The notes beneath the pieces are model-generated. The model was not told the DNA's origin. It searched no databases and was given only the letters and a program-made list of their open reading frames with translations. Below, piece after piece: positions 10,623 through 63,933 of a stretch of DNA of 64,000 nt (positions are counted from its first letter, which is position 1; each line of letters starts with the position of its first letter). The translations under genes were made by a program, and so were the position numbers. Origin of the DNA: Escherichia coli (GTDB lineage Bacteria > Pseudomonadota > Gammaproteobacteria > Enterobacterales > Enterobacteriaceae); assembly GCF_013315695.1 (NCBI RefSeq), contig NZ_CP054356.1; one strand, given 5' to 3'.

Positions 10623-11306
10623 ATGTCCCGTTTTGTCCTCGGTAACTGCATCGATGTTATGGCCCGTATTCCTGATAACGCCATTGATTTCATACTGACT
10701 GACCCGCCGTACCTCGTCGGTTTCCGTGACCGTTCCGGGCGCACCATTGCCGGTGATGTTAATGATGACTGGCTGCAACCTGCCAGCAATGAGATGTACC
10801 GCGTACTCAAAAAAGACGCGCTGATGGTCAGCTTCTACGGCTGGAACCGTGTCGATCGCTTTATGGCCGCCTGGAAACGCGCCGGATTCAGCGTGGCAGG
10901 GCACCTCGTGTTCACCAAAAACTACACATCCAAATCTGCGTATGTCGCGTACCGTCACGAATGCGCTTACATCCTGGCAAAGGGCAGTCCGGCCCGGCCC
11001 CGTAACCCTCTGCCGGATGTGCTGGGCTGGAAATATTCAGGCAATCGTCATCACCCGACGGAAAAGCCCGTTACCAGCCTGCAACCACTGATTGAGAGCT
11101 TCACACATCCGAACGCGATTGTGCTGGACCCGTTTGCAGGCAGCGGCTCAACCTGCGTCGCTGCCCTCCAGTCCGGACGCCGGTATATCGGTATCGAGCT
11201 GCTTGAACAGTATCACCGTGCCGGACAGCAACGACTGGCCGCCGTGCAACGGGCCATGCAGCAGGGGGCCGCGAATGATAACTGGTTTGAACCGGAGGCT
11301 GCGTAA
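10623..11306 (+). CDS. Orphan DNA methyltransferase (N6-adenine/N4-cytosine type, beta-class)
   Basis: Motif IV TDPPY precedes motif I DPFAGSGST; 227 aa; typical leading-region orphan MTase. Confidence 0.85.
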   Translation: MSRFVLGNCIDVMARIPDNAIDFILTDPPYLVGFRDRSGRTIAGDVNDDWLQPASNEMYRVLKKDALMVSFYGWNRVDRFMAAWKRAGFSVAGHLVFTKNYTSKSAYVAYRHECAYILAKGSPARPRNPLPDVLGWKYSGNRHHPTEKPVTSLQPLIESFTHPNAIVLDPFAGSGSTCVAALQSGRRYIGIELLEQYHRAGQQRLAAVQRAMQQGAANDNWFEPEAA

Positions 11307-14289: not shown

Positions 14290-14490
14290 TACAGGGCAGG
14301 CGGTGGAGGCCGCCTGTCAGCCCGCGCGAAAACCCCTGGCAGGCTGGCGCCTGCCGGAAGGGAAGCGGGCCACGCTGGCGCGTCGCCCGTTACCCTTCCC
14401 GTTTGTGATGTGTCCGGAATGTTTTTTCCTGATGTTATGTTTCTGTGGTTACTGTTCTTCTTCTTCCTCTTCTTTCCGTTCCTCTCCTGT

Positions 14491-15025
14491 TTATGCCTTT
14501 TCCGGGCGTCCCCCTGGCGGGGCGGGCTGTCGTGAACGGAGCCAGCGGAGCTGTCTCCGCCCTGGCGGGCTTCCATCCCTGACGCAAAACCCCGGGTTTG
14601 CAGCGACCGGAACGGTCGCGCCACCCCTGTCGCGCCGTGGCCTGCGCTCCCGGCATCCCGGCAAAAAGACGCCGGGATGTAAGGAGCAACGCCGTTTCGC
14701 AAACCGCGCTTCACGTCGTTGCAGCGGGTCCCTGCTCATTGCCTGCCGGGTGCCACACACCCGTATGAGTCCCTGTCGCCGGGGGCATAGACAGCCACAA
14801 CCTGCCGCACTGACTGTCCAGGGTAAATGAACAGCCCACAAAATTTTTTACCTAAAACCCGGTAAAAAATTTTGCGTTCTGCCCAGGACAGGTGCGTCAG
14901 GCCGTGGCAGTGATGCCCCTTGCGGCGAAGGTTCTCAAACGGGTGAAGTTCATACCACAGGGAATACAGCAGCAGGTTCCCGCGAAACGTCAAAACCGCG
15001 GCTCCCGAAACTCAACGGGTGATGT
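14491..15025 (+). repeat. Leading-region structured repeat, family B copy 1 (Frpo/ssi-like candidate ssDNA promoter)
   Basis: About 530 bp repeated at 17774-18300 and 23191-23740; contains perfect 14-bp inverted repeat CAAAATTTTTTACC/GGTAAAAAATTTTG (about 14839-14874). Confidence 0.6.
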
Positions 15026-15256
15026 TCTTTAAAAATCAGGATTTATTTCAGGCTCCGGCAATACGCATTTATGTGTTCTGTCAGTCATCCGGCTGGCAGG
15101 TAATGAAAACGCAGGAACAGAAGGAGGAAAACACCGGAAAGCGTCAGATGCAGATATGAAAAAAAGCAGGTCAGGGACCTGCTTAATCCACGCCGTAAGA
15201 ATTGTGCGACCAATTTTGACGGCATTGTTAACCAATTTGTCATAAGGAATCCATTT

Positions 15257-15487
15257 ATGACTGTAAGCATTGTTTCACCTTCCGCAGCGGCTGTAAAGCC
15301 CCGCCGTCATCCCCGTTTCAGACGCGAAGACATCCCCGCGCCGGAACTTGACCCCGTGCTGAAAGCCTTCGGGCGACACATTGCCCGGAGTTTTCGCCGG
15401 GGGCGTGGTGTACACATCCCCGCCATGAAAAACACGGCCTTCGGGCAGGTGCTCCGCACACTCGAACTGAAACGCGCTTTTAACTGA
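15257..15487 (+). CDS. Hypothetical small basic protein (76 aa, Arg-rich)
   Basis: RBS AAGGAA; first gene after family B copy 1; RRHPRFRRED..RSFRRGRG. Confidence 0.5.
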   Translation: MTVSIVSPSAAAVKPRRHPRFRREDIPAPELDPVLKAFGRHIARSFRRGRGVHIPAMKNTAFGQVLRTLELKRAFN

Positions 15488-17722: not shown

Positions 17723-17773
17723 TTCTTCTTTTTTCTGCTGCTCTGATTACTGTCTGTTTTGTTGTTCTCCTGC

Positions 17774-18300
17774 TTATGCCTTTTCCGGGCGTCCCCCTGG
17801 CGGGGCGGGCTGTCGTGAACGGAGCCAGCGGAGCTGTCTCCGCCCTGGCGGGCTTCCATCCCTGACGCAAAAACCCGGGTTTGCAGCGACCGGAACGGTC
17901 GCGCCACCCTTGTCGCGCCGTGGCCTGCGCTCCCGGCATCCCGGCAAAAGACGCCGGGATGTAAGGAGCAACGCTGTTTCGCAAACCGCGCTTCACGTCG
18001 TTGCGGCGGGTCCCTGCCCGTTGTTCTGTCCGGTGCCATTCACCTGTTTAAGCCCCTGTCGCCGGGGGCTGATACAGCCACAACCTGCCGCACTGACTGT
18101 CCAGGGTAAATGAACAGCCCACAAAATTTTTTACCCAAAACCCGGTAAAAAATTTTGCGTTCTGCCCAGGACAGGTGCGTCAGGCCGTGGCAGTGATGCC
18201 CCATGCGGCGAAGGTTCTCAAACAGGTGATGGTGAATACCGGAGGGAACAAAAGGCAGGTCCCCGCAAAACGTCAAAACCGCGGCTCCCGAAACTCAACA
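17774..18300 (+). repeat. Leading-region structured repeat, family B copy 2 (Frpo/ssi-like), upstream of ssb
   Basis: Near-identical to 14491-15025 and 23191-23740. Confidence 0.6.
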
Positions 18301-18340
18301 GATGATGGGGGCTGAAAACATCAACAGAAGGAGACACATC

Positions 18341-18868
18341 ATGGCAGTTCGTGGCATTAACAAGGTCATTCTTGTCGGTCGTCTGGGAAAAGATCCGGAA
18401 GTCCGTTACATCCCCAACGGGGGCGCAGTGGCAAACCTGCAGGTGGCCACGTCAGAAACCTGGCGCGACAAACAGACGGGGGAAATGAAGGAGCAGACGG
18501 AATGGCACCGCGTGGTGCTGTTCGGCAAGCTCGCGGAAGTGGCAGGTGAATATCTGCGTAAGGGGGCGCAGGTCTACATTGAAGGCCAGCTTCGCACCCG
18601 TAGCTGGGAAGATAACGGTATTACCCGTTACGTCACCGAAATCCTTGTTAAAACCACGGGCACCATGCAGATGCTGGGGAGTGCACCACAGCAGAACGCT
18701 CAGGTGCAACCGCAGCCTCAGCAGAATGGTCAGTCACAGAGTGCTGACGCGACGAAAAAAGGGAGCGCGAAAACGAAAGGCCGTGGACGTAAGGCTGCGC
18801 AGCCGGAGCCTCAGCCGCAACCACCGGAGGGGGAGGATTACGGGTTTTCAGACGATATCCCGTTCTGA
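18341..18868 (+). CDS. ssb: Plasmid single-stranded DNA-binding protein SSB
   Basis: [23 protein letters not shown].. OB-fold N-terminus and acidic C-terminal tail DDIPF; track ORF extended to upstream ATG 18302. Confidence 0.95.
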
Positions 18869-18886: not shown

Positions 18887-19159
<273 letters not shown>

Positions 19160-19219: not shown

Positions 19220-21184
19220 ATGTCAGTAACAAAGTCTGAACCAAAATCTACCCGTAAAGCAAGCCGTAAACCTGCAAAAACGCAGGAAACTGTCCTGTCT
19301 GCCCTGCTGGCGCAGACGGAGGAAGTGAGCGTGCCGCTGGCCTCGCTGATTAAGTCACCACTGAATGTGCGCACGGTGCCGTATTCTGCGGAGTCCGTCA
19401 GCGAACTGGCTGATTCCATTAAGGGGGTCGGCCTGCTGCAGAATCTGGTTGTTCATGCCCTGCCAGGTGACCGCCACGGTGTCGCCGCAGGTGGTCGCCG
19501 ACTGGCAGCACTCAACATGCTGGCAGAGCGTGGCATCATTCCGGCTGACTGGCCTGTCCGCGTGAAAATTATTCCGCAGGAACTGGCGACGGCCGCATCG
19601 ATGACCGAGAACGGTCATCGTCGGGATATGCACCCAGCCGAACAGATTGCCGGATTCTGTGCAATGGCGCAGGAAGGCAAAACACCTGCACAAATCGGTG
19701 ATTTGCTGGGCTATTCACCCCGCCACGTTCAGCGAATGCTGAAACTGGCTGACCTTGCGCCTGTCATCCTCGATGCGCTGGCAGAAGACCTCATCACCAC
19801 CGAGCACTGTCAGGCGCTGGCGCTGGAGAACGACACCGCGCGTCAGGTGCAGGTGTTTGAAGCCGCCTGTCAGTCGGGATGGGGCGGTAAACCGGAAGTA
19901 CAGACCATTCGTCGTCTGGTGACCGAAAGTGAAGTGGCGGTGGCAGGGAACAGTAAATTCCGCTTCGTGGGGGCTGATGCCTTCTCGCCAGATGAACTGC
20001 GCACTGACCTGTTCAGCGACGACGAGGGTGGCTATGTGGACTGCGTGGCGCTCGATGCCGCCCTGCTGGAAAAACTCCAGGCTGTTGCTGAACACCTTCG
20101 GGAAGCCGAAGGCTGGGGATGGTGCGCCGGACGCATGGAGCCTGTCGGTGAGTGCCGTGAGGATGCCGGAACATACCGCTGTCTGCCGGAGCCGGAAGCG
20201 GTGCTGACGGAGGCGGAAGAAGAACGTCTGAACGAACTGATGACGCGTTACGACGCGCTGGAAAACCAGTGTGAGGAATCTGACCTGCTGGAAGCAGAAA
20301 TGAAGCTGATGCGCTGCATGGCGAAGGTCAGGGCGTGGACGCCGGAGATGCGTGCCGGAAGCGGTGTGGTGGTGTCCTGGCGTTATGGCAACGTGTGTGT
20401 CCAGCGTGGTGTGCAGTTGCGCAGCGAGGATGATGCGGCTGACGACGCTGACCGCACGGAACAGGTGCAGGAGAAAGCGCCCGTGGAGGAAATCAGTCTG
20501 CCACTGCTGACGAAAATGTCTTCCGAACGCACGCTGGCAGTCCAGGCAGCACTGATGCAGCAACCGGACAAATCCCTGGCACTGCTGGCATGGACGCTCT
20601 GCCTGAATGTGTTTGGCAGCGGAGCGTACAGTAAACCAGCACAAATCAGCCTGGAATGTAAACATTATTCGCTGACCAGCGATGCGCCATCGGGGAAGGA
20701 CGGTGCCGCATTCCTGGCGCTGATGGCAGAAAAAGCCCGTCTTGCAGCCCTGTTACCGGAGGGATGGTCACGGGATATGACGACGTTCCTGTCACTCAGC
20801 CAGGAGGTACTGTTATCCCTGCTCAGTTTCTGCACCGCGTGCAGCATCCACGGCGTTCAGACCCGCGAGCATGGTCACACGTCACGCAGTCCGCTGGACT
20901 CGCTGGAGAGCGCTATCGGATTCCACATGCGCGACTGGTGGCAGCCGACGAAAGCAAACTTCTTCGGACACCTGCAAAAGCCGCAGATTATCGATGCCCT
21001 GAATGATGCCGGACTGTCCGGTGCTGCGCGGGACGCGGAGAAAATGAAGAAAGGCGATGCCGCTGAACATGCAGAGTTCCACATGAAAGACAACCGCTGG
21101 GTGCCTGGCTGGATGTGTACACCACGTCCACAGGCAGAGACGGAAACCACGGAGTACCGTGACGACCAGGCAGAAGCCGCCTGA
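19220..21184 (+). CDS. ParB-like nuclease domain protein (leading-region ParB/Srx homolog)
   Basis: 654 aa; N-terminal ParB-type region (..GLLQNLVVH.. GGRRLAALN..); conserved position between ssb and psiB. Confidence 0.7.
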
Positions 21185-21252
21185 CCGCCAGTCATAAACC
21201 ATTTATCACGCCGCCCTGCCGGAGACGGGGCGGCAGCAAGGGAGATACCGTG

Positions 21253-21687
21253 ATGAAAACTGAACTGACCCTGAATGTATTACAGACCATGAGCGCACAG
21301 GAATATGAAGATATCCGGGCTGCCGGAAGTGATGAACGTCGTGAACTCACACATGCCGTGATGCGGGAGCTGGATGCGCCGGATAACTGGACGATGAACG
21401 GCGAGTATGGCAGCGAGTTCGGCGGCTTTTTCCCCGTCCAGGTCCGTTTCACGCCTGCCCACGAACGTTTTCACCTGGCGTTATGTTCACCGGGCGATGT
21501 CTCTCAGGTCTGGGTGCTGGTTCTGGTGAATGCCGGTGGTGAGCCGTTTGCGGTGGTTCAGGTACAGCGGCGGTTTGCACCGGAAGCCGTCAGCCATTCA
21601 CTGGCACTGGCGGCGTCACTGGACGCGCAGGGGTACAGCGTCAGTGACATCATCCATATCCTGATGGCGGAAGGAGGTCAGGCATGA
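21253..21687 (+). CDS. psiB: Plasmid SOS inhibition protein PsiB
   Basis: [40 protein letters not shown].. matches recalled PsiB; ATG at 21253 (track starts at GTG 21250). Confidence 0.95.
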
Positions 21688-22403
21688 GCGCACGTTCACA
21701 GGCACTGGTTCCCCTCAGCGCAGAGCAACAGGCCGCATGGCGGGCGGTGGCGGAGACAGAAAAACGCCGCCACCAGGGAAACACGCTGGCGGAATATCCG
21801 TATGCGGGGGCGTTTTTCCGCTGTCTGAACGGAAGCCGCAGGATATCGCTGTCTGACCTGCGATTTTTCATGCCGTCCCTGACCGCAGAAGAACTGCGCG
21901 GCAACCGTTCTCAGTGGCTGTATGCCGTCGATGTGCTGATTGAAACTCAGGGCGAGGTCTGCCTTCTTCCCCTTCCCGGCGATGCAGCAGAGCGGCTGTT
22001 CCCGTCGGTGCGGTTCCGTGTCAGGGAGCGCAGTCGCCACAAATCCGCACTGGTCATGCAAAAGTACAGCCGCCAGCAGGCGAGGGAGGCAGAGCAGAAA
22101 GCCCGTGCGTACCAGGCGCTGGTCGCTCAGGCTGAAATCGAACTGGCATTCCATTCGCCGGAAACAGTCGGAAGCTGGCATGCCCGCTGGAGTGACCGGG
22201 TGGCAGAGCATGACCTGGAAACCCTGTTCTGGCAGTGGGGTGAGCGTTTTCCGTCACTGGCCGGAATGGAACGCTGGCAGTGGCAGGATATGCCGTTCTG
22301 GCAGGTTATTGCGGAAGCCAGTCTTGCAGCAAGAGAGGCCGGTCACGCTGTCCGTGAGATGGAGCGGTGGATGGTGCCGAACAAACTCCGGGAGGCGGCG
22401 TGA
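21684..22403 (+). CDS. psiA: Plasmid SOS inhibition protein PsiA
   Basis: 239 aa immediately downstream of and overlapping psiB stop. Confidence 0.85.
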
Positions 22404-22559
22404 TGCGGCAACAATCGCACAGATTACCCGTAAACAGCCTGAATGAGCGGGTTATTTTCAGGAAAAGTGAGTGTGGTCAGCGTGCAGGTATATGGGCTAT
22501 GATGTGCCCGGCGCTTGAGGCTTTCTGCCTCATGACGTGAAGGTGGTTTGTTACCGTGT

Positions 22560-22640
22560 TGTGTGGCAGAAAGAAGATAGCCCCGTAGTAAGTTAATTTT
22601 CATTAACCACCACGAGGCATCCCTATGTCTAGTCCACATC
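22560..22640 (-). ncRNA. Putative sok/flmB-type antisense RNA (approximate)
   Basis: Inferred from hok/mok architecture: antisense to mok leader; boundaries not determined. Confidence 0.3.
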
Positions 22641-22837
22641 AGGATAGCCTCTTACCGCGCTTTGCGCAAGGAGAAGAAGGCCATGAAACTACCACGAAGT
22701 TCCCTTGTCTGGTGTGTGTTGATCGTGTGTCTCACACTGTTGATATTCACTTATCTGACACGAAAATCGCTGTGCGAGATTCGTTACAGAGACGGACACA
22801 GGGAGGTGGCGGCTTTCATGGCTTACGAATCCGGTAA
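22625..22837 (+). CDS. mok: mok-like modulator-of-killing reading frame overlapping hok
   Basis: 70-aa ORF overlapping the hok frame, as in hok/sok and flm loci. Confidence 0.6.
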
Positions 22838-22841
22838 GTAG
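22683..22841 (+). CDS. hok: Hok/Gef-family membrane toxin (FlmA/Hok-like), 52 aa; below ORF-track size cut-off
   Basis: Translation [52 protein letters not shown] matches recalled Hok; TAG stop at 22839-22841. Confidence 0.92.
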
Positions 22842-22850
22842 CAACCTGGA

Positions 22851-22872
22851 GGCGGGCGCAGGCCCGCCTTTT
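22851..22872 (+). terminator. Rho-independent terminator of hok mRNA
   Basis: GGCGGGCGCAGGCCCGCC hairpin followed by TTTT. Confidence 0.7.
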
Positions 22873-23190
22873 CAGGGCTGATGCTGGTCTGACTGCACTG
22901 AAGCGCCTTTATAAAGGGGCTGCTGGTTCGCCGGTGGCCCCTTTCTCCTTGCTGGCATTGTACGGGCATGAACAACCAGACTGCCAGGAAGGCCGTTTCC
23001 CTCCGGGAACGGGGATGAACGTGCGCCTGCGGCGCCCGTTCTTTTCCCCCGCCTTCTCTGTTTATGACTTACCAGAAATCACATCACCTTCCCTTTGATT
23101 ATTCTCTTTTTCCTCCTGCTCTGACTCTGATTACTGCTCTGACTCTGATTACTGCTGCCCTGATTATTGTCTGTTTTGTTGTTCTCCTGC

Positions 23191-23740
23191 TTATGCCTTT
23201 TCCGGGCGTCCCCCTGGCGGGGCGGGCTGTCGTGAACGGAGCCAGCGAAGCTGTCTCCGCCCTGGCGGGCTTCCATCCCTGACGCAAAACCCCCGGCTTG
23301 CAGCGACTGTTCCGGTCGCGCCGCCTCTGTCGCGCCGTGGCCTGCGCTCCTGGCATCCCGGCAAAAGGCCGCCGGGATGTAAGGCGCAACGCCGTTTCGC
23401 AAACCGCGCTTCACGTCGTTGCGGCGGGTCCCTGCCCGTTGTTGTGTCCGGTGCCATTCACCTGTTTAAGCCCTGTCGCCGGGGCTGATAGTTGATACAA
23501 CCTGCCGCACTGACTGTCCGGTAAAATGAACAGCCCACAAAATTTTTTACCCAAAACCCGGTAAAAATTTTGCGTTCTGCTCCAGACAGGTGCGTCAGGC
23601 CGTGGCAGGTGATGCCCCTGCGGCGAAGGTTCTCAAACAGGTGATGGTGAATACCGGAGGAACAAAAGGCAGGTCCCCGCAAAACGTCAAAACCGCGGCT
23701 CCCGAAACTCAACAGATGATGGGGGCTGAAAACATCAGAT
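23191..23740 (+). repeat. Leading-region structured repeat, family B copy 3 (Frpo/ssi-like)
   Basis: Near-identical to copies 1 and 2; 3' end shares the ssb leader sequence up to about 10 nt before the RBS. Confidence 0.6.
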
Positions 23741-24159: not shown

Positions 24160-24981
24160 ATGCGATTAGCTTCCCGTTTTGGTCGATATAATTCTATTCG
24201 CCGTGAGCGCCCGTTAACGGATGACGAATTAATGCAGTTTGTTCCATCTGTCTTTTCTGGTGATAAACATGAATCCCGGAGTGAGCGTTATACATATATC
24301 CCAACCATCAATATCATCAATAAGTTACGTGATGAAGGTTTCCAGCCATTCTTTGCCTGTCAGAGTCGGGTTCGTGATTTGGGACGCCGCGAATACAGTA
24401 AACATATGTTACGTCTTCGCAGGGAAGGGCATATTAACGGGAAAGAAGTTCCTGAAATTATCCTGCTTAATTCACATGATGGTTCATCCAGTTATCAGAT
24501 GATCCCAGGAATTTTTCGTTTTGTCTGCACAAATGGCCTGGTGTGTGGGAATAATTTTGGCGAAATCCGCGTTCCACATAAAGGTGATATTGTCGGGCAG
24601 GTTATTGAGGGAGCGTATGAAGTGCTCGGTGTCTTTGATAAAGTCACTGAAAATATGGAGACAATGAAAGAGATACATCTTAACAGTGACGAACAACATT
24701 TATTTGGCAGAGCTGCATTGATGGCCAGGTACGAAGATGAAAATAAAACGCCAGTGACGCCAGAACAAATAATTACTCCCCGCCGTTGGGAGGATAAACA
24801 GAACGATCTCTGGACAACCTGGCAGCGGGTTCAGGAGAATATGATAAAAGGTGGATTATCGGGGCGAAGTGCCTCCGGTAAAAATACCAGAACAAGAGCC
24901 ATTACAGGCATTGACGGTGATATCCGAATCAACAAAGCATTATGGATGATTGCCGAACAGTTCAGGGAGTGGAAGTCATGA
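24160..24981 (+). CDS. Conserved leading-region protein (DUF932-like)
   Basis: 273 aa; conserved position next to orf169/oriT in F-like plasmids; family name from memory only. Confidence 0.5.
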   Translation: MRLASRFGRYNSIRRERPLTDDELMQFVPSVFSGDKHESRSERYTYIPTINIINKLRDEGFQPFFACQSRVRDLGRREYSKHMLRLRREGHINGKEVPEIILLNSHDGSSSYQMIPGIFRFVCTNGLVCGNNFGEIRVPHKGDIVGQVIEGAYEVLGVFDKVTENMETMKEIHLNSDEQHLFGRAALMARYEDENKTPVTPEQIITPRRWEDKQNDLWTTWQRVQENMIKGGLSGRSASGKNTRTRAITGIDGDIRINKALWMIAEQFREWKS

Positions 24982-25277: not shown

Positions 25278-25787
25278 TTAATTTTTCTGCACACTGTTAA
25301 TTTGGGAAAGTGATTTCTTCGTGGTCGGAACCCGGATGCCTTTACTGCTCTTTATCCAGGTATAAATCCGGTAAACCTCTGATGCGTAGGCAAGACGTCT
25401 CTGGTTCTGGCGTTCGGTCTTCCTGAATCCGGCATTGTATGCACCAACGGCCTCCCAGGAGACGCCCCATTTTTTAAAGGCTATTGCCAGATAATAAGCA
25501 CCGGTATAAATGTTCATGCAGGGATCTGTTGTCAGATGTTCCGGCTTAATTCCATAGCGGGCCAGTTCGTTAAAATGCTGGGAATCTACCTGCATCAGTC
25601 CGCTGCCATATCCCGTTACCGGATTAATACCGATGGCATTAACCCGGTAACGGGATTCTTTCCATGATATCGCTCTCAGTAAATCCGGGTCTATTTTGTA
25701 ATCCCGACCTGCAAGATCAAAGCAATCGGCGGCTTCGCAGATCCCATTTATAAACATCAGGCAGATTGCTAACATCCATTTTTTCAT
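25278..25787 (-). CDS. Lytic transglycosylase (F orf169/gene X-like)
   Basis: 169 aa with signal peptide and transglycosylase motifs (..ISWKESRY.. GLMQV.. AYNAG..); transcribed away from oriT. Confidence 0.85.
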
Positions 25788-26584: not shown

Positions 26585-26692
26585 AAGAAATTTGACTTCG
26601 TTCAAATATCAGAGTTTTTATGATTTAAAAAGGTGACAGTACGAAAGATAATTAGTATATTAATTACGTGGTTAATGCCACGTTAAAATTTG

Positions 26693-26775
26693 AATTTGAA
26701 AATCGCCGATGCAGGGAGTTCTCTCCTCCCCGCATCGACTGTCCATAGAATCCTTTGTGAGGAGGTTCCTATGTA
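26693..26775 (-). ncRNA. finP: FinP antisense RNA (approximate)
   Basis: Antisense to traJ leader/RBS; two stem-loops (e.g. CGATGCAGGGAG..CTCCCCGCATCG) and minus-strand U-tail (plus GAATTTGAAAATC). Confidence 0.6.
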
Positions 26776-27460
26776 TCCGATGGATCGTATTCAACAAAAA
26801 CATGCTCGTCAAATAGATCTGCTGGAAAATCTGACGGCAGTTATTCAGGATTATCCAAATCCAGCCTGTATCAGGGACGAAACTGGAAAATTTATTTTTT
26901 GCAATACGCTGTTTCATGAGTCATTTCTTACACAAGATCAAAGTGCTGAAAAATGGCTTCTGTCGCAGAGAGATTTTTATGAATTGATCTCTGTCACAGA
27001 GATGGAAGCATACAGGAATGAGCATACGCATCTTAATCTTGTAGAGGATGTTTTTATTCAGAACAGATTCTGGACAATATCTGTCCAGTCATTTCTTAAT
27101 GGACACAGAAATATTATTCTGTGGCAATTTTATGATGCTGCTCATGTTCGTCATAAAGACAGTTATAATCAAAAAACGATTGTCAGTGATGATATCAGAA
27201 ATATAATCAGAAGAATGAGTGATGATTCTTCTGTATCATCATATGTAAATGATGTATTTTACTTATATAGCACCGGAATCAGTCATAATGCTATAGCAAG
27301 AATATTAAACATATCCATCTCCACATCAAAGAAACACGCATCTCTGATATGCGACTACTTCTCTGTTTCTAATAAAGATGAGTTAATCATCTTACTCTAC
27401 AATAAAAAGTTTATTCATTATTTATACGAGAAGGCTATGTGTATCATAAATATGCGTTAA
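26771..27460 (+). CDS. traJ: Transfer operon activator TraJ
   Basis: ATG with RBS GAGGAGG; MYPMDRIQQKHARQIDLLENL..; track ORF extends upstream to 26690. Confidence 0.85.
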   Translation: MYPMDRIQQKHARQIDLLENLTAVIQDYPNPACIRDETGKFIFCNTLFHESFLTQDQSAEKWLLSQRDFYELISVTEMEAYRNEHTHLNLVEDVFIQNRFWTISVQSFLNGHRNIILWQFYDAAHVRHKDSYNQKTIVSDDIRNIIRRMSDDSSVSSYVNDVFYLYSTGISHNAIARILNISISTSKKHASLICDYFSVSNKDELIILLYNKKFIHYLYEKAMCIINMR

Positions 27461-46209: not shown

Positions 46210-49028
46210 ATGAAGTCTATGTGATTGCCGGTGGTGAGTGGTTAAGCAATAACCTGAACGCCATTGCCGCCTTTATGGGGACCCGGACGTGGGATTCCAT
46301 CGAAAAAATTGCGCTCACATTGTCTGTTCTCGCGGTGGCCGTGATGTGGGTACAGCGGCACAACGTGATGGATTTGCTGGGCTGGGTGGCCGTGTTTGTG
46401 CTTATCAGCCTGCTGGTTAATGTCCGTACATCGGTGCAGATTATTGATAACAGTGACCTGGTCAAAGTTCACCGGGTGGATAATGTGCCGGTCGGACTGG
46501 CGATGCCACTTTCACTGACGACCCGTATCGGGCATGCAATGGTGGCCAGTTACGAGATGATATTCACCCAGCCGGACAGTGTCACCTACAGCAAAACGGG
46601 GATGCTGTTCGGCGCAGAACTGGTATCAAAAAGCACCGACTTTTTGTCCCGCAATCCGGAAATCGCCAATCTTTTTCAGGATTATGTGCAGAACTGTGTG
46701 ATGGGGGATATTTACCTGAACCACAAATACACGCTGGAGGAGCTGATGGCCTCCGCTGATCCCTACACGCTGATTTTTTCCCGCCCCAGTCCGCTGCGGG
46801 GCGTTTACGACAGCAATAATAATTTCGTGACCTGTAAGGACGCGTCGGTTTCGCTGAAAGACAAGCTGAATCTGGACACACAGAGTGGCGGAAAAACCTG
46901 GCATTATTATGCCCAGCAGTTATTTGGTGGTCGCCCTGATCCGAACCTGTTGTTCAGTACGCTGATTGGCGACAGTTACAGTTACTTCTATGGCTCAAGT
47001 AAATCAGCCAGCCAGATCATCCGCCAGAATGTCACCATCAATGCGCTGAAGGAGGGGATCACCAGTTATGCCGCACGTAATGGTGATTCGGCCAGCCTGG
47101 TGAATCTGGCCACCACATCATCGATGGAGAAGCAACGTCTGGCACATGTCTCCATCGGTCATGTGGCGATGCGGACACTGCCCATGACGCAGACCATCCT
47201 GACGGGGATCGCCATCGGTATTTTCCCGCTCCTGGTACTGGCGGCTGTCTTCAACAAACTGACGCTGTCCGTCCTGAAAGGCTATGTGTTTGCCCTGATG
47301 TGGTTGCAGTCATGGCCAATGTTGTACGCCATTCTGAACAGTGCCATGACATTTTATGCGAAGCAGAACGGTGCACCGGTGGTGCTCTCAGAAATTTCAC
47401 AGATACAGCTGAAATACTCCGATCTGGCTTCCACTGCCGGGTATCTTTCCATGATGATCCCGCCATTATCCTGGATGATGGTCAGGGGACTCGGGGCCGG
47501 ATTTTCCAGTGTGTACAGCCATTTCGCTTCCTCTGCTATCAGCCCGACCGCCAGTGCGGCAGGCAGTGTGGTTGACGGTAATTACTCCTACGGCAACATG
47601 CAGACGGAAAACGTGAACGGCTTCAGCTGGAGCACCAACAGCACCACGTCGTTTGGTCAGATGATGTACCAGACCGGCAGTGGCGCAACTGCCACACAGA
47701 CCCGTGACGGTAATATGGTGATGGATGCGAGCGGGGCGATGTCCCGGTTACCGGTTGGTATCAATGCAACGCGTCAGATTGCAGCGGCACAACAGGAAAT
47801 GGCCCGGGAGGCGTCGAACAGAGCAGAAAGCGCCCTGCATGGGTTCAGCAGCAGTATTGCCAGTGCCTGGAACTCGCTCAGCCAGTTTGGTTCTAACCGG
47901 GGGAGCAGTGATTCTGTCACAGGTGGTGCTGACAGCACGATGAGCGCACAGGACTCCATGATGGCCAGCCGTATGCGCAGTGCAGTGGAAAGCTATGCGA
48001 AGGCGCATAATATCAGTAATGAGCAGGCGACTCAGGAACTGGCATCCAGAAGTACGAGAACTTCTGCCGGGATGTATGGAGATGCTCATGCTGAATGGGG
48101 GGTTAAACCTAAAATTCTTGGTGTTGGTGGAGGATTAGGCGTTAGAGGTGGTGGTCGGGCTGGTATTGATTGGGAAGATAATGATGCGCATACGGCAAGT
48201 AGTAATACTCAGTCGAGCCATAATGCTCGTCATGATATCGATGCCAGAGCTACACAAGACTTTAAAGAGGCCAGCGATTACTTTACCAGTCGCAAGGTCA
48301 GTGAGTCCGGCAGCCATACTGACAATAATGCTGATTCCCGTGTGGATCAGTTGTCTGCAGCCCTGAATTCAGCGAAGCAGAGTTACGACCAGTACACGAC
48401 GAATATGACCCGCAGCCATGAATATGCTGAAATGGCATCCCGTACTGAAAGCATGAGTGGGCAGATGAGTGAAGACCTGTCGCAACAGTTTGCACAGTAT
48501 GTAATGAAACACGCGCCACAGGATGCAGAAGCTATTCTGACAAACACCAGTTCACCGGAGATTGCAGAACGTCGTCGGGCGATGGCCTGGTCTTTTGTGC
48601 AGGAACAGGTACAGCCTGGTGTTGATAATGCCTGGCGGGAATCCCGTGGTGATATTGGTAAAGGAATGGAGAGCGTACCTTCGGGTGGTGGCAGTCAGGA
48701 TATTATTGCTGACCATCAGGGACATCAGGCCATTATTGAGCAAAGAACGCAGGACAGTAATATCCGTAATGATGTAAAACATCAGGTTGATAATATGGTC
48801 ACAGAATATAAAGGGAATATAGGTGATACTCAGAACAGCGTACGTGGCGAGGAAAATATTGTAAGAGGACAGTATTCTGAACTGCAGAATCACCATAAAA
48901 CAGAGGCATTATCTCAGAATAATAAATATAATGAAGAAAAGTCGGCTCAGGAAAGAATGCCCGGGGCTGACAGTCCACAGGAACTTATGAAAAGGGCAAA
49001 GGAATATCAGGATAAGTATAAGCAATAA
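46206..49028 (+). CDS. traG: Mating-pair stabilisation / entry-exclusion protein TraG
   Basis: 940 aa, N-terminal multi-TM domain and large periplasmic domain. Confidence 0.92.
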   Translation: MNEVYVIAGGEWLSNNLNAIAAFMGTRTWDSIEKIALTLSVLAVAVMWVQRHNVMDLLGWVAVFVLISLLVNVRTSVQIIDNSDLVKVHRVDNVPVGLAMPLSLTTRIGHAMVASYEMIFTQPDSVTYSKTGMLFGAELVSKSTDFLSRNPEIANLFQDYVQNCVMGDIYLNHKYTLEELMASADPYTLIFSRPSPLRGVYDSNNNFVTCKDASVSLKDKLNLDTQSGGKTWHYYAQQLFGGRPDPNLLFSTLIGDSYSYFYGSSKSASQIIRQNVTINALKEGITSYAARNGDSASLVNLATTSSMEKQRLAHVSIGHVAMRTLPMTQTILTGIAIGIFPLLVLAAVFNKLTLSVLKGYVFALMWLQSWPMLYAILNSAMTFYAKQNGAPVVLSEISQIQLKYSDLASTAGYLSMMIPPLSWMMVRGLGAGFSSVYSHFASSAISPTASAAGSVVDGNYSYGNMQTENVNGFSWSTNSTTSFGQMMYQTGSGATATQTRDGNMVMDASGAMSRLPVGINATRQIAAAQQEMAREASNRAESALHGFSSSIASAWNSLSQFGSNRGSSDSVTGGADSTMSAQDSMMASRMRSAVESYAKAHNISNEQATQELASRSTRTSAGMYGDAHAEWGVKPKILGVGGGLGVRGGGRAGIDWEDNDAHTASSNTQSSHNARHDIDARATQDFKEASDYFTSRKVSESGSHTDNNADSRVDQLSAALNSAKQSYDQYTTNMTRSHEYAEMASRTESMSGQMSEDLSQQFAQYVMKHAPQDAEAILTNTSSPEIAERRRAMAWSFVQEQVQPGVDNAWRESRGDIGKGMESVPSGGGSQDIIADHQGHQAIIEQRTQDSNIRNDVKHQVDNMVTEYKGNIGDTQNSVRGEENIVRGQYSELQNHHKTEALSQNNKYNEEKSAQERMPGADSPQELMKRAKEYQDKYKQ

Positions 49029-53525: not shown

Positions 53526-56500
53526 TGTTGAGTTTCAGCGTTGTTAAATCGGCAGGCAGTGCCGGAAACTATTACACCGACAAGGATAATTACTATGTGC
53601 TGGGCAGCATGGGAGAACGCTGGGCTGGTCAGGGGGCTGAACAGCTTGGGCTGCAGGGCAGCGTCGATAAGGATGTTTTTACCCGTCTTCTGGAGGGCAG
53701 GCTGCCGGACGGGGCGGATTTAAGCCGCATGCAGGATGGCAGTAATAAGCATCGTCCCGGCTACGACCTGACCTTCTCCGCCCCCAAAAGTGTCTCCATG
53801 ATGGCCATGCTCGGGGGGGATAAACGTCTTATTGATGCACATAACCAGGCCGTGGATTTTGCTGTCCGTCAGGTGGAGGCGCTGGCTTCCACACGGGTGA
53901 TGACGGACGGACAGTCAGAAACGGTGCTGACCGGTAATCTGGTGATGGCACTGTTTAACCATGACACCAGTCGCGATCAGGACCCACAGTTACACACGCA
54001 TGTAGTGGTGGCTAATGTCACGCAGCATAACGGCGAGTGGAAGACACTGAGCAGTGACAAAGTGGGGAAAACCGGATTTTCCGAGAACGTGCTAGCGAAC
54101 CGGATTGCGTTCGGGAAAATATATCAGAGTGAGTTACGTCAGCGCGTTGAGGCGCTGGGTTATGAAACCGAAGTGGTCGGTAAGCACGGTATGTGGGAGA
54201 TGCCGGGCGTACCGGTGGAGGCCTTTTCCAGTCGTTCACAGGCTATCAGGGAGGCCGTCGGTGAAGACGCCTCGCTGAAATCCCGGGATGTGGCGGCACT
54301 GGATACGCGAAAATCCAAACAGCACGTCGATCCGGAAATCAGAATGGCTGAATGGATGCAGACGCTGAAGGAAACCGGGTTCGACATCCGGGCATATCGT
54401 GACGCGGCGGATCAGCGTGCGGAGATCCGCACGCAGGCGCCCGGGCCTGCTTCACAGGACGGGCCGGATGTGCAGCAGGCGGTGACACAGGCGATTGCCG
54501 GATTAAGTGAACGAAAAGTGCAGTTCACGTATACGGACGTGCTGGCCAGGACGGTCGGCATACTGCCGCCGGAAAATGGTGTGATTGAACGGGCACGCGC
54601 CGGTATCGATGAGGCCATCAGCCGTGAGCAGCTTATCCCCCTCGACCGTGAGAAGGGGCTGTTCACATCAGGAATTCATGTGCTCGATGAGCTGTCCGTC
54701 CGGGCACTCAGTCGTGACATCATGAAACAGAACCGGGTGACCGTACATCCGGAGAAAAGTGTCCCCCGGACGGCTGGTTACAGCGATGCGGTCAGTGTTC
54801 TGGCACAGGACCGTCCGTCGCTGGCCATTGTGTCCGGGCAGGGCGGTGCAGCCGGGCAGCGTGAGCGGGTGGCTGAACTGGTCATGATGGCCCGGGAGCA
54901 GGGGCGGGAGGTGCAGATTATCGCTGCTGACCGTCGCTCGCAGATGAACCTGAAGCAGGATGAACGGCTGTCCGGTGAGCTGATAACCGGACGTCGTCAG
55001 CTGCAGGAGGGCATGGTCTTCACGCCGGGCAGTACTGTTATCGTCGACCAGGGCGAAAAACTCTCCCTGAAAGAGACGTTAACCCTGCTGGACGGTGCCG
55101 CACGTCATAACGTACAGGTCCTGATAACCGACAGCGGGCAGCGAACCGGTACAGGCAGTGCGCTGATGGCCATGAAGGATACCGGGGTGAACACGTATCG
55201 CTGGCAGGGCGGAGAACAGCGACCGGCAACCATCATCAGTGAACCGGACCGGAATGTCCGCTATGACCGGCTGGCCGGAGATTTTGCGGCCAGCGTGAAA
55301 GCCGGAGAAGAGAGCGTGGCACAGGTCAGCGGGGTACGGGAACAGGCCATACTGACACAGGCCATTCGCAGTGAGCTGAAAACACAGGGCGTGCTCGGAC
55401 ACCCGGAGGTGACCATGACCGCCCTGTCACCGGTCTGGCTGGACAGCCGGAGCCGTTATCTGCGGGATATGTACCGACCGGGGATGGTGATGGAGCAGTG
55501 GAACCCGGAGACACGCAGTCATGACCGCTATGTTATCGACCGGGTGACGGCGCAGAGTCACAGCCTGACCCTGCGGGATGCGCAGGGCGAAACGCAGGTG
55601 GTGCGTATTTCCTCCCTGGACAGCAGCTGGTCGCTGTTCCGGCCGGAAAAAATGCCGGTGGCAGACGGCGAGCGACTGAGGGTGACAGGGAAAATTCCCG
55701 GACTCCGCGTCTCCGGCGGTGACCGCCTGCAGGTGGCATCCGTCAGTGAAGATGCGATGACGGTTGTTGTGCCGGGGCGGGCTGAACCGGCCACCCTGCC
55801 TGTGGCTGATTCACCGTTCACGGCACTGAAGCTGGAGAACGGCTGGGTGGAAACGCCCGGGCATTCCGTCAGTGACAGTGCGACGGTGTTTGCCTCCGTC
55901 ACACAGATGGCAATGGACAACGCCACCCTGAACGGTCTGGCCCGCAGCGGTCGTGATGTCCGGCTGTATTCCTCACTGGATGAAACCCGTACTGCGGAAA
56001 AACTTGCCCGCCATCCCTCCTTTACGGTGGTTTCTGAGCAGATAAAGGCGCGGGCCGGTGAGACATCGCTGGAAACCGCTATCAGTCTGCAGAAAACCGG
56101 GCTGCACACGCCGGCACAGCAGGCCATTCATCTGGCCCTTCCTGTGCTGGAAAGTAAAAACCTGGCCTTCAGCATGGTGGACCTGCTGACAGAGGCGAAG
56201 TCGTTTGCTGCAGAAGGAACCGGTTTTACTGAACTGGGAGGGGAAATCAATGCGCAGATAAAACGCGGTGACTTACTGTATGTGGATGTGGCAAAAGGCT
56301 ATGGCACAGGCCTGCTGGTTTCCCGTGCGTCGTATGAGGCAGAAAAAAGTATTCTTCGCCATATTCTCGAAGGTAAGGAGGCGGTCACGCCGCTGATGGA
56401 GAGAGTACCCGGCGAACTCATGGAGACGTTAACGTCGGGACAGCGTGCCGCCACCCGTATGATACTGGAAACGTCCGACCGTTTCACGGTGGTACAGGGT

Positions 56501-60528: not shown

Positions 60529-61269
60529 AAATAACCCCCGTCGCGGAGCTCCGGGGGATCAGGCTTATATGGCAGATCGTTATTATTATAGTGGTGTAAG
60601 AAGGAGTTGCCCTGTCTTTCAAACGGACATCACAGAGTTAACATATTTCACATCCCGGGTAAGCCAGCAGGGATAAAAAATGTGATGAATTTCAAGAAGC
60701 AGAAGGTGACAGTAGCATGCATAACAGTACGGTTATGTCCGGTGAATCTGACAGACAGCCGGGCTGTATTCGCGGCAGGATAAAGAAAAACCGGGAGATG
60801 ACTCTCCCGGTCCGTCTTATCGCTAATCCCCTGAGCAGGGCATGTATGACTTATCTATGACCGTTATATTCAGCGCCACATCCGGTAGCCTGCGATATAA
60901 CACAGTTATCCTATCAGTAAGAGCAGGTATGATGAATACACGGAGATTAAAAATATAATCTCCGTCACATGTTACCCCCGGAAACCGGTAACGCCGTCAC
61001 GGGAAATACGTGACAGAAAAAGCAGCCTCCGTTACTCCAGGTATCAGAAGGCTGAATAATGCATGAGACTTTGTTTCTTATGTGTCTGGTCAGGCTGGCT
61101 GACCAGCGTTTTTAGTAACACATAGCCATATGTGTATTAAGCCACCTCATCTTATTTTGTCGAATTGATCACAATTCAACGGTTTATTTTTGGCGTGATA
61201 CGTGAGCCGTTATTCATCCCGGCATGGAATTCATGCAATCACGAAAAGTAATCAGTGACGGAGAGTAAA

Positions 61270-62808: not shown

Positions 62809-62950
62809 AAGCGGGAAATGGAGGTAATGGTCAGCAACAGGGAATGTGGTATTATCGCGGCGGGTGTCTGAGCCTTTCTGGTTCAGGCAAGACGCAGGTA
62901 CCAGAAATGCGAAGACCCCACTTGTTAATCCATTAACTCGTGAGGCCTGC

Positions 62951-63010
62951 ATGAAGTACGTAGCACTACTGATTGTAGCCTCTTCCTTGCAGAGAGGTCA
63001 AAGTTTATGA
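62951..63010 (+). CDS. pndC/mok-like leader reading frame (19 aa) translationally coupled to toxin gene
   Basis: ATG 62951; stop TGA overlaps toxin ATG (ATGA); architecture as in pnd/srnB loci. Confidence 0.5.
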   Translation: MKYVALLIVASSLQRGQSL

Positions 63011-63156
63011 CGAAATATACCCTTATCGGGTTGCTCGCCGTGTGCGCCACGGTGTTGTGTTTTTCACTGATATTCAGGGAACGGTTATGTGAGCTGAATA
63101 TTCACAGGGGAAATACAGTGGTGCAGGTAACTCTGGCCTACGAAGCACGGAAGTAA
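63007..63156 (+). CDS. pndA: Hok-family toxin PndA/SrnB-like, 49 aa; below ORF-track size cut-off
   Basis: Translation MTKYTLIGLLAVCATVLCFSLIFRERLCELNIHRGNTVVQVTLAYEARK; matches recalled PndA/SrnB core. Confidence 0.88.
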   Translation: MTKYTLIGLLAVCATVLCFSLIFRERLCELNIHRGNTVVQVTLAYEARK

Positions 63157-63440
63157 GCTGCCGGGCGGGGGCGGAAGTCCCCGCTTTCCGGAAGTGTGGG
63201 GTATTTCAGGGGCAGACACCCGACATGCCAGAAACCGCCGGTCCCGCCCGGGGCCGGCACACAGGTTAAGGCATTTCCTGTTTTTTCAGCCATTTCGCAA
63301 CAAAAATCACATTAAACAACAGTAATCAGACATGATTTGTGCGCCAACACAGATCTTCGTCACAATTCTCAAGTCGCTGATTTCAAAAAACTGTAGTATC
63401 CTCTGCGAAACGATCCCTGTCTGAGAAGAGAGGAGGCGAG

Positions 63441-63792: not shown

Positions 63793-63885
63793 ACTGGTTC
63801 TGATGTGGATTTACAGGAGCCAGAAAAGCAAAAACCCCGATAATCTTCTTCAACTTTGGCGAGTACGAAAAGATTACCGGGGCCC
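63793..63885 (-). ncRNA. copA: CopA antisense RNA of RepFII replicon (approximate)
   Basis: Target stem-loop on plus strand CCCCGATAATCTTCTTCAACTTTGGCGAGTACGAAAAGATTACCGGGG in repA leader; boundaries approximate. Confidence 0.5.
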
Positions 63886-63933
63886 ACTTAAACCGTATAG
63901 CCAACAATTCAGCTATGCGGGGAGTATAGTTAT

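Follow-up and report, generated by a model that had tools for sequence, protein, structure and literature searches.

[quoted passage not shown] In R1, the -10 box of the hok promoter is TATGAT and spans positions -12 to -7, the nascent hok transcript adopts a transient 5' structure, the Shine-Dalgarno sequence of mok is GAGG (with G105 and A106) and nucleotides A70, G71, C72 and C74 act as its anti-Shine-Dalgarno, while mutation of G345 or C358 destroys the truncated hok mRNA (PMC9841398). The terminal 39 nt are removed from this mRNA, and the antisense partner Sok, 64 nt in length, has a stem-loop and, at its 5' end, a tail of 11 nt, and is transcribed from a promoter described as strong (PMC1635323). 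Two further described systems are close to the locus considered here, namely flm of plasmid F (flmA/flmB/flmC, parL; NC_002483) and the cassette of pMccB17, in which psiA is followed by sok (on the complement), mok, hok and yubO (PMC10912980).

The DNA analysed is a stretch of 64,000 nt from Escherichia coli (NZ_CP054356.1), referred to as the window. With a probability of about 0.96, its segment at about 22474-22950 is an intact type I hok/mok/sok toxin-antitoxin cassette of the plasmid-R1 allele type, situated in the leading region of a conjugative plasmid of F-like (pMccB17-like) type, where it most likely works as in R1. As such, it is an already known and extremely common plasmid-addiction element, and the copy in the window raises no new biological question. 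The cassette comprises the following features:

22474-22503, plus strand: hok promoter, with -35 TGGTCA at 22474-22479, an 18-nt spacer and -10 TATGAT at 22498-22503
22510-22907, plus strand: hok (mok-hok) mRNA at full length, nt 1-398, taken to the final base of fbi
22510-22519, plus strand: tac element GGCGCUUGAG, the 5' end of the mRNA (nt 1-10)
22516-22532, plus strand: metastable hairpin at the 5' end of the nascent RNA, formed by nt 7-12 and nt 18-23
about 22637-22572, minus strand: Sok antisense RNA gene, about 64-66 nt, with 5' tail, long imperfect hairpin and U-rich 3' tail; both ends are approximate
22579-22586, plus strand: ucb or anti-Shine-Dalgarno box, nt 70-77, masking the mok Shine-Dalgarno sequence
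22614-22617, plus strand: mok Shine-Dalgarno GAGG, G105-G108, placed by sequence and R1 numbering
22625-22837, plus strand: mok leader frame, ATG at 22625 to TAA at 22837, 70 aa, overlapping hok in another frame
22669-22641, minus strand: putative sok promoter, with -35 TTGCGC at 22669-22664, a 17-nt spacer and -10 TATCCT at 22646-22641
22668-22673, plus strand: hok Shine-Dalgarno AAGGAG, 9 nt 5' of the hok ATG and invariant in relatives
22683-22841, plus strand: hok toxin gene, ATG at 22683 to TAG at 22841, 52 aa plus stop, Pfam HOK_GEF
22849-22872, plus strand: 3' stem-loop of the truncated (translatable) hok mRNA, GGAGGCGGGC-GCAG-GCCCGCCUUUU, a G+C-rich hairpin followed by TTTT, from the fold
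22898-22907, plus strand: fbi element CUGAAGCGCC, pairing with tac in the minimum free energy (MFE) fold and by pair probabilities
22914-22950, plus strand: distal hairpin and T-run, AAAGGGGCUGCUGG-UUCG-CCGGUGGCCCCUUUCUCCUU, from the fold and kept in relatives

The identity of the toxin and of its leader frame can be read from the two proteins. The 52-aa Hok peptide, a small hydrophobic toxin, fits the Pfam profile PF01848 (HOK_GEF) with 76.5 bits against a cut-off of 22 (E=1.2e-21, profile positions 2-42 of 42), and the entry named 'Protein Hok' (HOK_ECOLX) has exactly this sequence, which occurs on at least 1000 contigs. The 70-aa Mok frame matches Pfam DUF5431, the Mok/FlmC family, over all of its 70 positions with 140 bits (E=2.6e-41); its exact sequence, on record as 'Protein FlmC homolog' (FLMC2_ECOLX), is likewise found on at least 1000 contigs. 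Both frames are uninterrupted, with mok starting upstream of hok and stopping near the hok stop codon (22837 vs 22841). These matches bear out a preliminary description of the same DNA, made without database searches, which had read a canonical Hok at 22683-22841 with a 70-aa mok frame overlapping it and had proposed a search for Hok/Gef family matches as the check. It had also attributed the absence of the locus from the open reading frame (ORF) track to a cut-off of 60 aa. This explanation holds for hok, which is missing because the mechanical ORF in its frame (59 aa from the TTG at 22662) falls under the limit; the mok frame, at 70 aa, lies above it. For annotation this means that a complete, presumably active addiction cassette escapes an ORF cut-off of 60 aa. 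In RefSeq/PGAP annotations of identical plasmids and of F, Hok is given as a 41-aa protein from an internal GTG at 22716 (22716-22841, plus strand), and mok and sok are mostly left unannotated.

The hok promoter reaches 9 of 12 consensus matches in the promoter scan, and a second promoter-like site called by the scan inside hok (22740-22767) is regarded as a chance occurrence. As the TATGAT box spans -12 to -7 in R1 (PMC9841398), the +1 position of the hok mRNA is placed at 22510. With this numbering, every one of the 15 R1-numbered positions of that study carries the stated base in the window (G4, C5, T6, G64, A70, G71, C72, C74, G105, A106, A169, T204, G311, G345 and C358). The agreement with the R1 locus (hok/mok/sok, parB) extends from the exact Hok and Mok sequences and the -10 box to the tac/fbi and ucb/mok Shine-Dalgarno pairings, the 3' stem-loop and the architecture of Sok, and no functional difference from R1 was detected in this comparison, which was made through the R1-numbered positions and the exact proteins.

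By analogy with R1, a weak constitutive promoter would give rise to a stable hok mRNA of about 400 nt, in which tac at the 5' end would pair with fbi at the 3' end while ucb hides the mok Shine-Dalgarno sequence, a closed form that would accept neither ribosomes nor Sok. Slow exonucleolytic trimming of about 39 nt from the 3' end would halt at the stem-loop at 22849-22872 and free tac, upon which the 5' region would refold through tac/ucb pairing and expose the translation start of mok. In plasmid-bearing cells, the short-lived Sok RNA from the minus strand would bind the refolded mRNA via its 5' tail and RNase III would cleave the duplex. In cells that have lost the plasmid, Sok would decay, mok would be translated and hok with it by coupling, and the 52-aa membrane toxin would kill the cell. 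Transcription, processing, RNase III cleavage, half-lives and killing are carried over to the window from the R1 literature and would be expected to apply here.

The predicted folds are consistent with such a switch. The first 30-40 nt of the hok RNA fold as a nascent hairpin of -13.7 kcal/mol. The MFE structure predicted for the 398-nt RNA joins tac to fbi by pairs of nt 1-7 with nt 392-398 and of nt 9-10 with nt 389-390, at probabilities of 0.976-1.0, and in it nt 71-77 of ucb pair with nt 103-109 through base pairs that are invariant in the relatives. The open form was modelled by enforcing the published tac/ucb pairs 4-72, 5-71 and 6-70. This costs +12.0 kcal/mol in the full-length RNA (nt 1-398; MFE -175.3, with the pairs enforced -163.3) and only +0.1 kcal/mol in the truncated RNA (nt 1-361; -147.6 and -147.5, respectively), whose ensemble contains the open form with a probability of about 0.22. 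The unconstrained MFE fold of the truncated RNA keeps the mok Shine-Dalgarno sequence paired, and the published open form was obtained in the constrained fold. It is therefore plausible from the modelled energies, which taken by themselves are no proof, that removal of fbi makes the translatable fold accessible as in the R1 model.

At the 3' end, the preliminary description had reported a strong terminator after hok. The G+C-rich hairpin with TTTT is indeed present at 22849-22872, but its stem (22851-22869) contains G345 and C358, and it is read as the exonuclease road-block of the processed mRNA and not as the end of the primary transcript. The distal hairpin at 22914-22950 probably serves as an intrinsic terminator for the primary transcript, a role suggested by its fold and by its retention in relatives. 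Neither hairpin was called by the terminator scan, and a 5-bp stem that a scan did call at 22725-22737 is regarded as chance. The full-length mRNA, which we take to be 398 nt long, would end at 22907; its 3' end may lie a few nucleotides further on (about 22909) or at the distal hairpin (about 22950). [quoted passage not shown] This span encloses both coding frames and one hairpin, but leaves outside the promoter and 5' untranslated region (22474-22624), fbi and the distal hairpin, so that the functional unit of about 22474-22950 is wider.

The antisense gene was sought on the minus strand, where TTGCGC, 17 nt and TATCCT precede an RNA that folds into the Sok hairpin, in agreement with the expectation that a sok promoter would be found. 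The assignment of these two boxes as the sok promoter is putative and follows from their position upstream of the Sok RNA; with 7 of 12 sigma-70 consensus matches, the site stays under the threshold of the promoter scan and was not called by it. The RNA has a predicted MFE of about -26.5 kcal/mol, with a single-stranded 5' tail, a hairpin and a CUUCUU end, in line with the published description of Sok (PMC1635323), and is complementary to nt 63-128 of the hok mRNA, thereby covering ucb, the mok Shine-Dalgarno sequence and the mok AUG. Transcription of Sok in the window is predicted, and its expression would follow that described for R1. An ORF of 71 aa on the minus strand (22424-22639), named 'protein sok' in one GenBank record, was rejected as a gene, Sok being an RNA and the name a legacy. 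The Rfam family sok (RF01794) matches at 22509-22685 with 88.9 bits against a gathering score of 59. The hits of this 'sok antitoxin' family, here and at 62862-63017, lie on the plus strand, that is, on the sense strand of the 5' untranslated region of the hok mRNA, and the alignment stops at the hok AUG. The match marks the locus and not the antisense transcript as such, the strand being the wrong one for the Sok RNA.

A similarity search retrieved related plasmid loci from E. coli, Klebsiella and Enterobacter, with identities ranging between 80% and 100%. In the most distant of these, the match begins at query position 40 or 41, the latter being 22510 and thus the +1 of the mRNA, and the alignment shows similarity ending just past the distal hairpin. 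As similarity is bounded by the transcription start on one side and the distal hairpin on the other, the conserved unit is the transcript and not the coding frames. The fold of the full-length mRNA was evaluated on an alignment of ten sequences (A2; the window and relatives L002-L010), in which 90% of cells are paired, compared with 35-45% when the partners are slid by 1-3 columns. Thirteen pairs have changed on both sides, compared with 0-5 in the slid controls, and none of 500 shuffles reaches the observed value. The compensatory changes are concentrated in a hairpin of the coding region (alignment columns 246-282) and in the 3' stem-loop at 22849-22872, in which both partners have changed in four pairs and 96.9% of cells are paired. 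The distal hairpin is kept in the Klebsiella and Enterobacter relatives with pair-preserving changes. The elements tac and fbi are invariant in all ten loci, and because it never varies there the tac/fbi helix is uninformative on its own in this alignment.

The surroundings of the cassette are those of an F-like leading region, with the following order of features:

18302-18868: SSB (Pfam)
18920-19159: DUF905 (Pfam)
19220-21184: ParB-like (Pfam)
21250-21687: PsiB (Pfam)
21684-22403: PsiA (Pfam)
22474-22950: hok locus, between PsiA and DUF932
24160-24981: DUF932 (Pfam)
25278-25787, minus strand: SLT transglycosylase (Pfam)
from 26201: traM and the tra operon

The order ssb, DUF905, ParB-like, psiB, psiA, hok, DUF932, SLT and traM is the same in F and in a RefSeq plasmid of 100% identity, and the Hok start of RefSeq follows the end of psiB by 1029 bp in the window and by 1024 bp in F. 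The earlier placement of the locus at the end of the ssb-psiB-psiA module, in the position of flm in F, is thus confirmed. The gene order also agrees with that of pMccB17 (PMC10912980), whose offsets of mok and hok from psiA correspond exactly to 22625-22837 and 22683-22841 in the window and whose sok annotation, complement(10748..10813), translates through the psiA, mok and hok offsets into 22572-22637 on the minus strand, the comparison being one of annotation offsets. Over the first 25 kb, the window is 99.7-99.9% identical to E. coli plasmids of about 72-77 kb that carry microcin B17 genes (McbB, YcaO-like), which agrees with the description of pMccB17. The best-matching plasmids also carry parM beside the McbB and YcaO-like genes. 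Further Rfam matches in the window are the traJ 5' untranslated region with FinP (26666-26777), AS-traI (56374-56450), AS-traG (46925-47010), AS-pc01 (15161-15262) and AS-pc02 (60951-61093), and they fit an F-like plasmid.

The leading region holds three copies of a repeat of about 600 bp (14443-15040, 17726-18323 and 23143-23737; 72-100% identity), each centred on the palindrome CAAAATTTTTTACC-CAAAACCC-GGTAAAAAATTTTG (at 14839, 18122 and 23538). One of them lies ahead of ssb and another comes immediately after hok/sok; as single-stranded DNA, the minus strand of the third copy folds with z = -3.9. The repeat fits one described for pMccB17 and is probably a single-strand promoter element of the Frpo/ssi type. 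Just downstream of the hok locus there is a perfect tandem duplication of the 18-bp unit CTGCTCTGACTCTGATTA (two copies, 23116-23151). The ORF of 72 aa that holds this duplication (23064-23282) was rejected as a part of the locus; it has no Pfam match and lies inside the repeated non-coding element.

In this position, the main selected role of the cassette could be an early action in the recipient after conjugation, or the exclusion of phages or competing plasmids, instead of segregational stability. The leading-region genes including hok all lie on the plus strand, in the direction of oriT and traM, and a repeat with single-strand hairpins of the kind proposed as promoters on single-stranded DNA occurs both at 23143-23737 and upstream of ssb. 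An enrichment of toxin-antitoxin genes in leading regions, with coding on the T-strand, has moreover been reported (PMC11541004), and a possible role in early establishment has been mentioned (bioRxiv 10.1101/2025.08.07.668861). Transcription of hok from single-stranded DNA, however, has no support here; the nearest copy of the repeat is located downstream of hok and not upstream, and post-segregational killing is the established function of this exact cassette. A predominantly early role is accordingly considered improbable, and it adds to the explanation by post-segregational killing rather than replacing it.

The question of which allele occupies the slot can be addressed by comparison with F, in which flm lies in the same place directly after psiA and shares 96% identity across some 520 bp. 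The two plasmids agree fully in the promoter, in tac and fbi and in both 3' hairpins, and most of the coding sequence is likewise the same. Hok residue 39 is Y (TAC) in F and H (CAC) in the window, and 20 of 67 positions of the antisense region (Sok or FlmB) differ, including indels and the 5' recognition tail, which reads GUGGACUAGACAU in the window and GUUGUCUAAGCAU in F. Of all 26 differences between the window and F, 20 fall inside the 67-nt Sok overlap (Fisher p = 2.5e-12; odds ratio about 23-fold). By comparison, a plasmid variant of 99% identity (CP059923) has the same Sok region as the window. The window differs from this variant in four small ways, namely A vs G at nt 44, G vs A at nt 368, TGCACTG vs T--ACTG (an indel of 2 nt) in the stretch from the 3' stem-loop to fbi, and one G/A difference in the distal hairpin. 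R1 itself presumably resembles the CP059923 variant. The Sok-region differences from F, H39 and the Sok region shared with the 99%-identical variant are the reasons why the locus is, as judged by its sequence, an R1-type hok/sok allele in the slot of flm. That it might instead be the flm allele of F is very improbable. The genomic slot, the overall identity and the common family and mechanism of Flm and Hok would all agree with flm, but residue 39, the record of the exact protein as HOK_ECOLX, the clustering of the differences within the Sok overlap and the divergent Sok 5' tails speak against it, and the FlmA protein and FlmB antisense RNA as they exist in F are not what the window contains. 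The distinction between flm and R1 hok/sok is in any case one of allele and name and not of kind.

Variation in the antisense region extends beyond the pair of the window and F. Six different Sok 5' tails are found among the ten plasmids of the alignment (positions 22571-22637 of the window and the corresponding parts of L002-L010), their cassettes being otherwise 80-100% identical, and this variety suggests a diversification of antisense specificity. The architecture of 5' tail, hairpin and U-tail is kept in all alleles of the set despite the sequence changes. Taken together with the orientation of the genes, the sequence pattern would permit a combined reading, in which the Sok region is the fast-evolving specificity determinant of near-identical cassettes and hok mRNA is produced from the T-strand ahead of any template for Sok and would thereby arm addiction during establishment. 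The second part is proposed because hok shares its orientation with leading-region genes thought to be transcribed from the incoming T-strand. This combination is unlikely on the present pattern; if true, co-resident or competing IncF plasmids would carry 'immunity types' that do not protect against one another.

Many E. coli plasmid records contain the 551-bp region at 22400-22950 with 100% identity. Matches to it were obtained in at least 5000 plasmid records, with 4017 of the matches listed being predicted conjugative, and well over a thousand sequenced plasmids carry exactly this hok/sok sequence. A decayed or silent hok-like remnant, no longer expressed or toxic, would have its precedent in the several chromosomal hok loci that are often inactive (literature summarised in bioRxiv 10.1101/2025.08.07.668861), but is scarcely credible for a locus in which all elements are intact, all 15 R1 positions are identical, both frames are open and neither an insertion sequence nor a truncation is found, and for which complete identity across many independent conjugative plasmids argues for purifying selection.

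The hok/sok cassette is not the only member of its family in the window. A second hok-family type I toxin-antitoxin locus is located at 62862-63221 on the plus strand, with a toxin ORF at 63007-63156, and we take it to be srnB-like. Together with this locus and the partition genes, the hok/sok cassette helps to explain the stable upkeep of the F-like plasmid. The toxin of the second locus, MTKYTLIGLLAVCATVLCFSLIFRERLCELNIHRGNTVVQVTLAYEARK (49 aa), matches Pfam HOK_GEF with E=4.1e-9 and also falls under the 60-aa cut-off. It is 39% identical to the Hok of the first locus over 41 aa, and the DNA of the two loci aligns poorly. The Rfam sok family matches at 62862-63017 with 93.1 bits. In the MFE fold, the 5' end GGGUGUCUG pairs with the 3' element CAGACACCC, and a G+C-rich 3' stem-loop is present. 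Since both partners of this end pairing have changed together relative to the first locus while the pairing itself is kept, the comparison supports the tac/fbi pairing of the hok mRNA. The second locus lies outside the leading region and next to the RepFII replicon, whose CopA antisense RNA (63826-63916) is found about 600 bp downstream of it.
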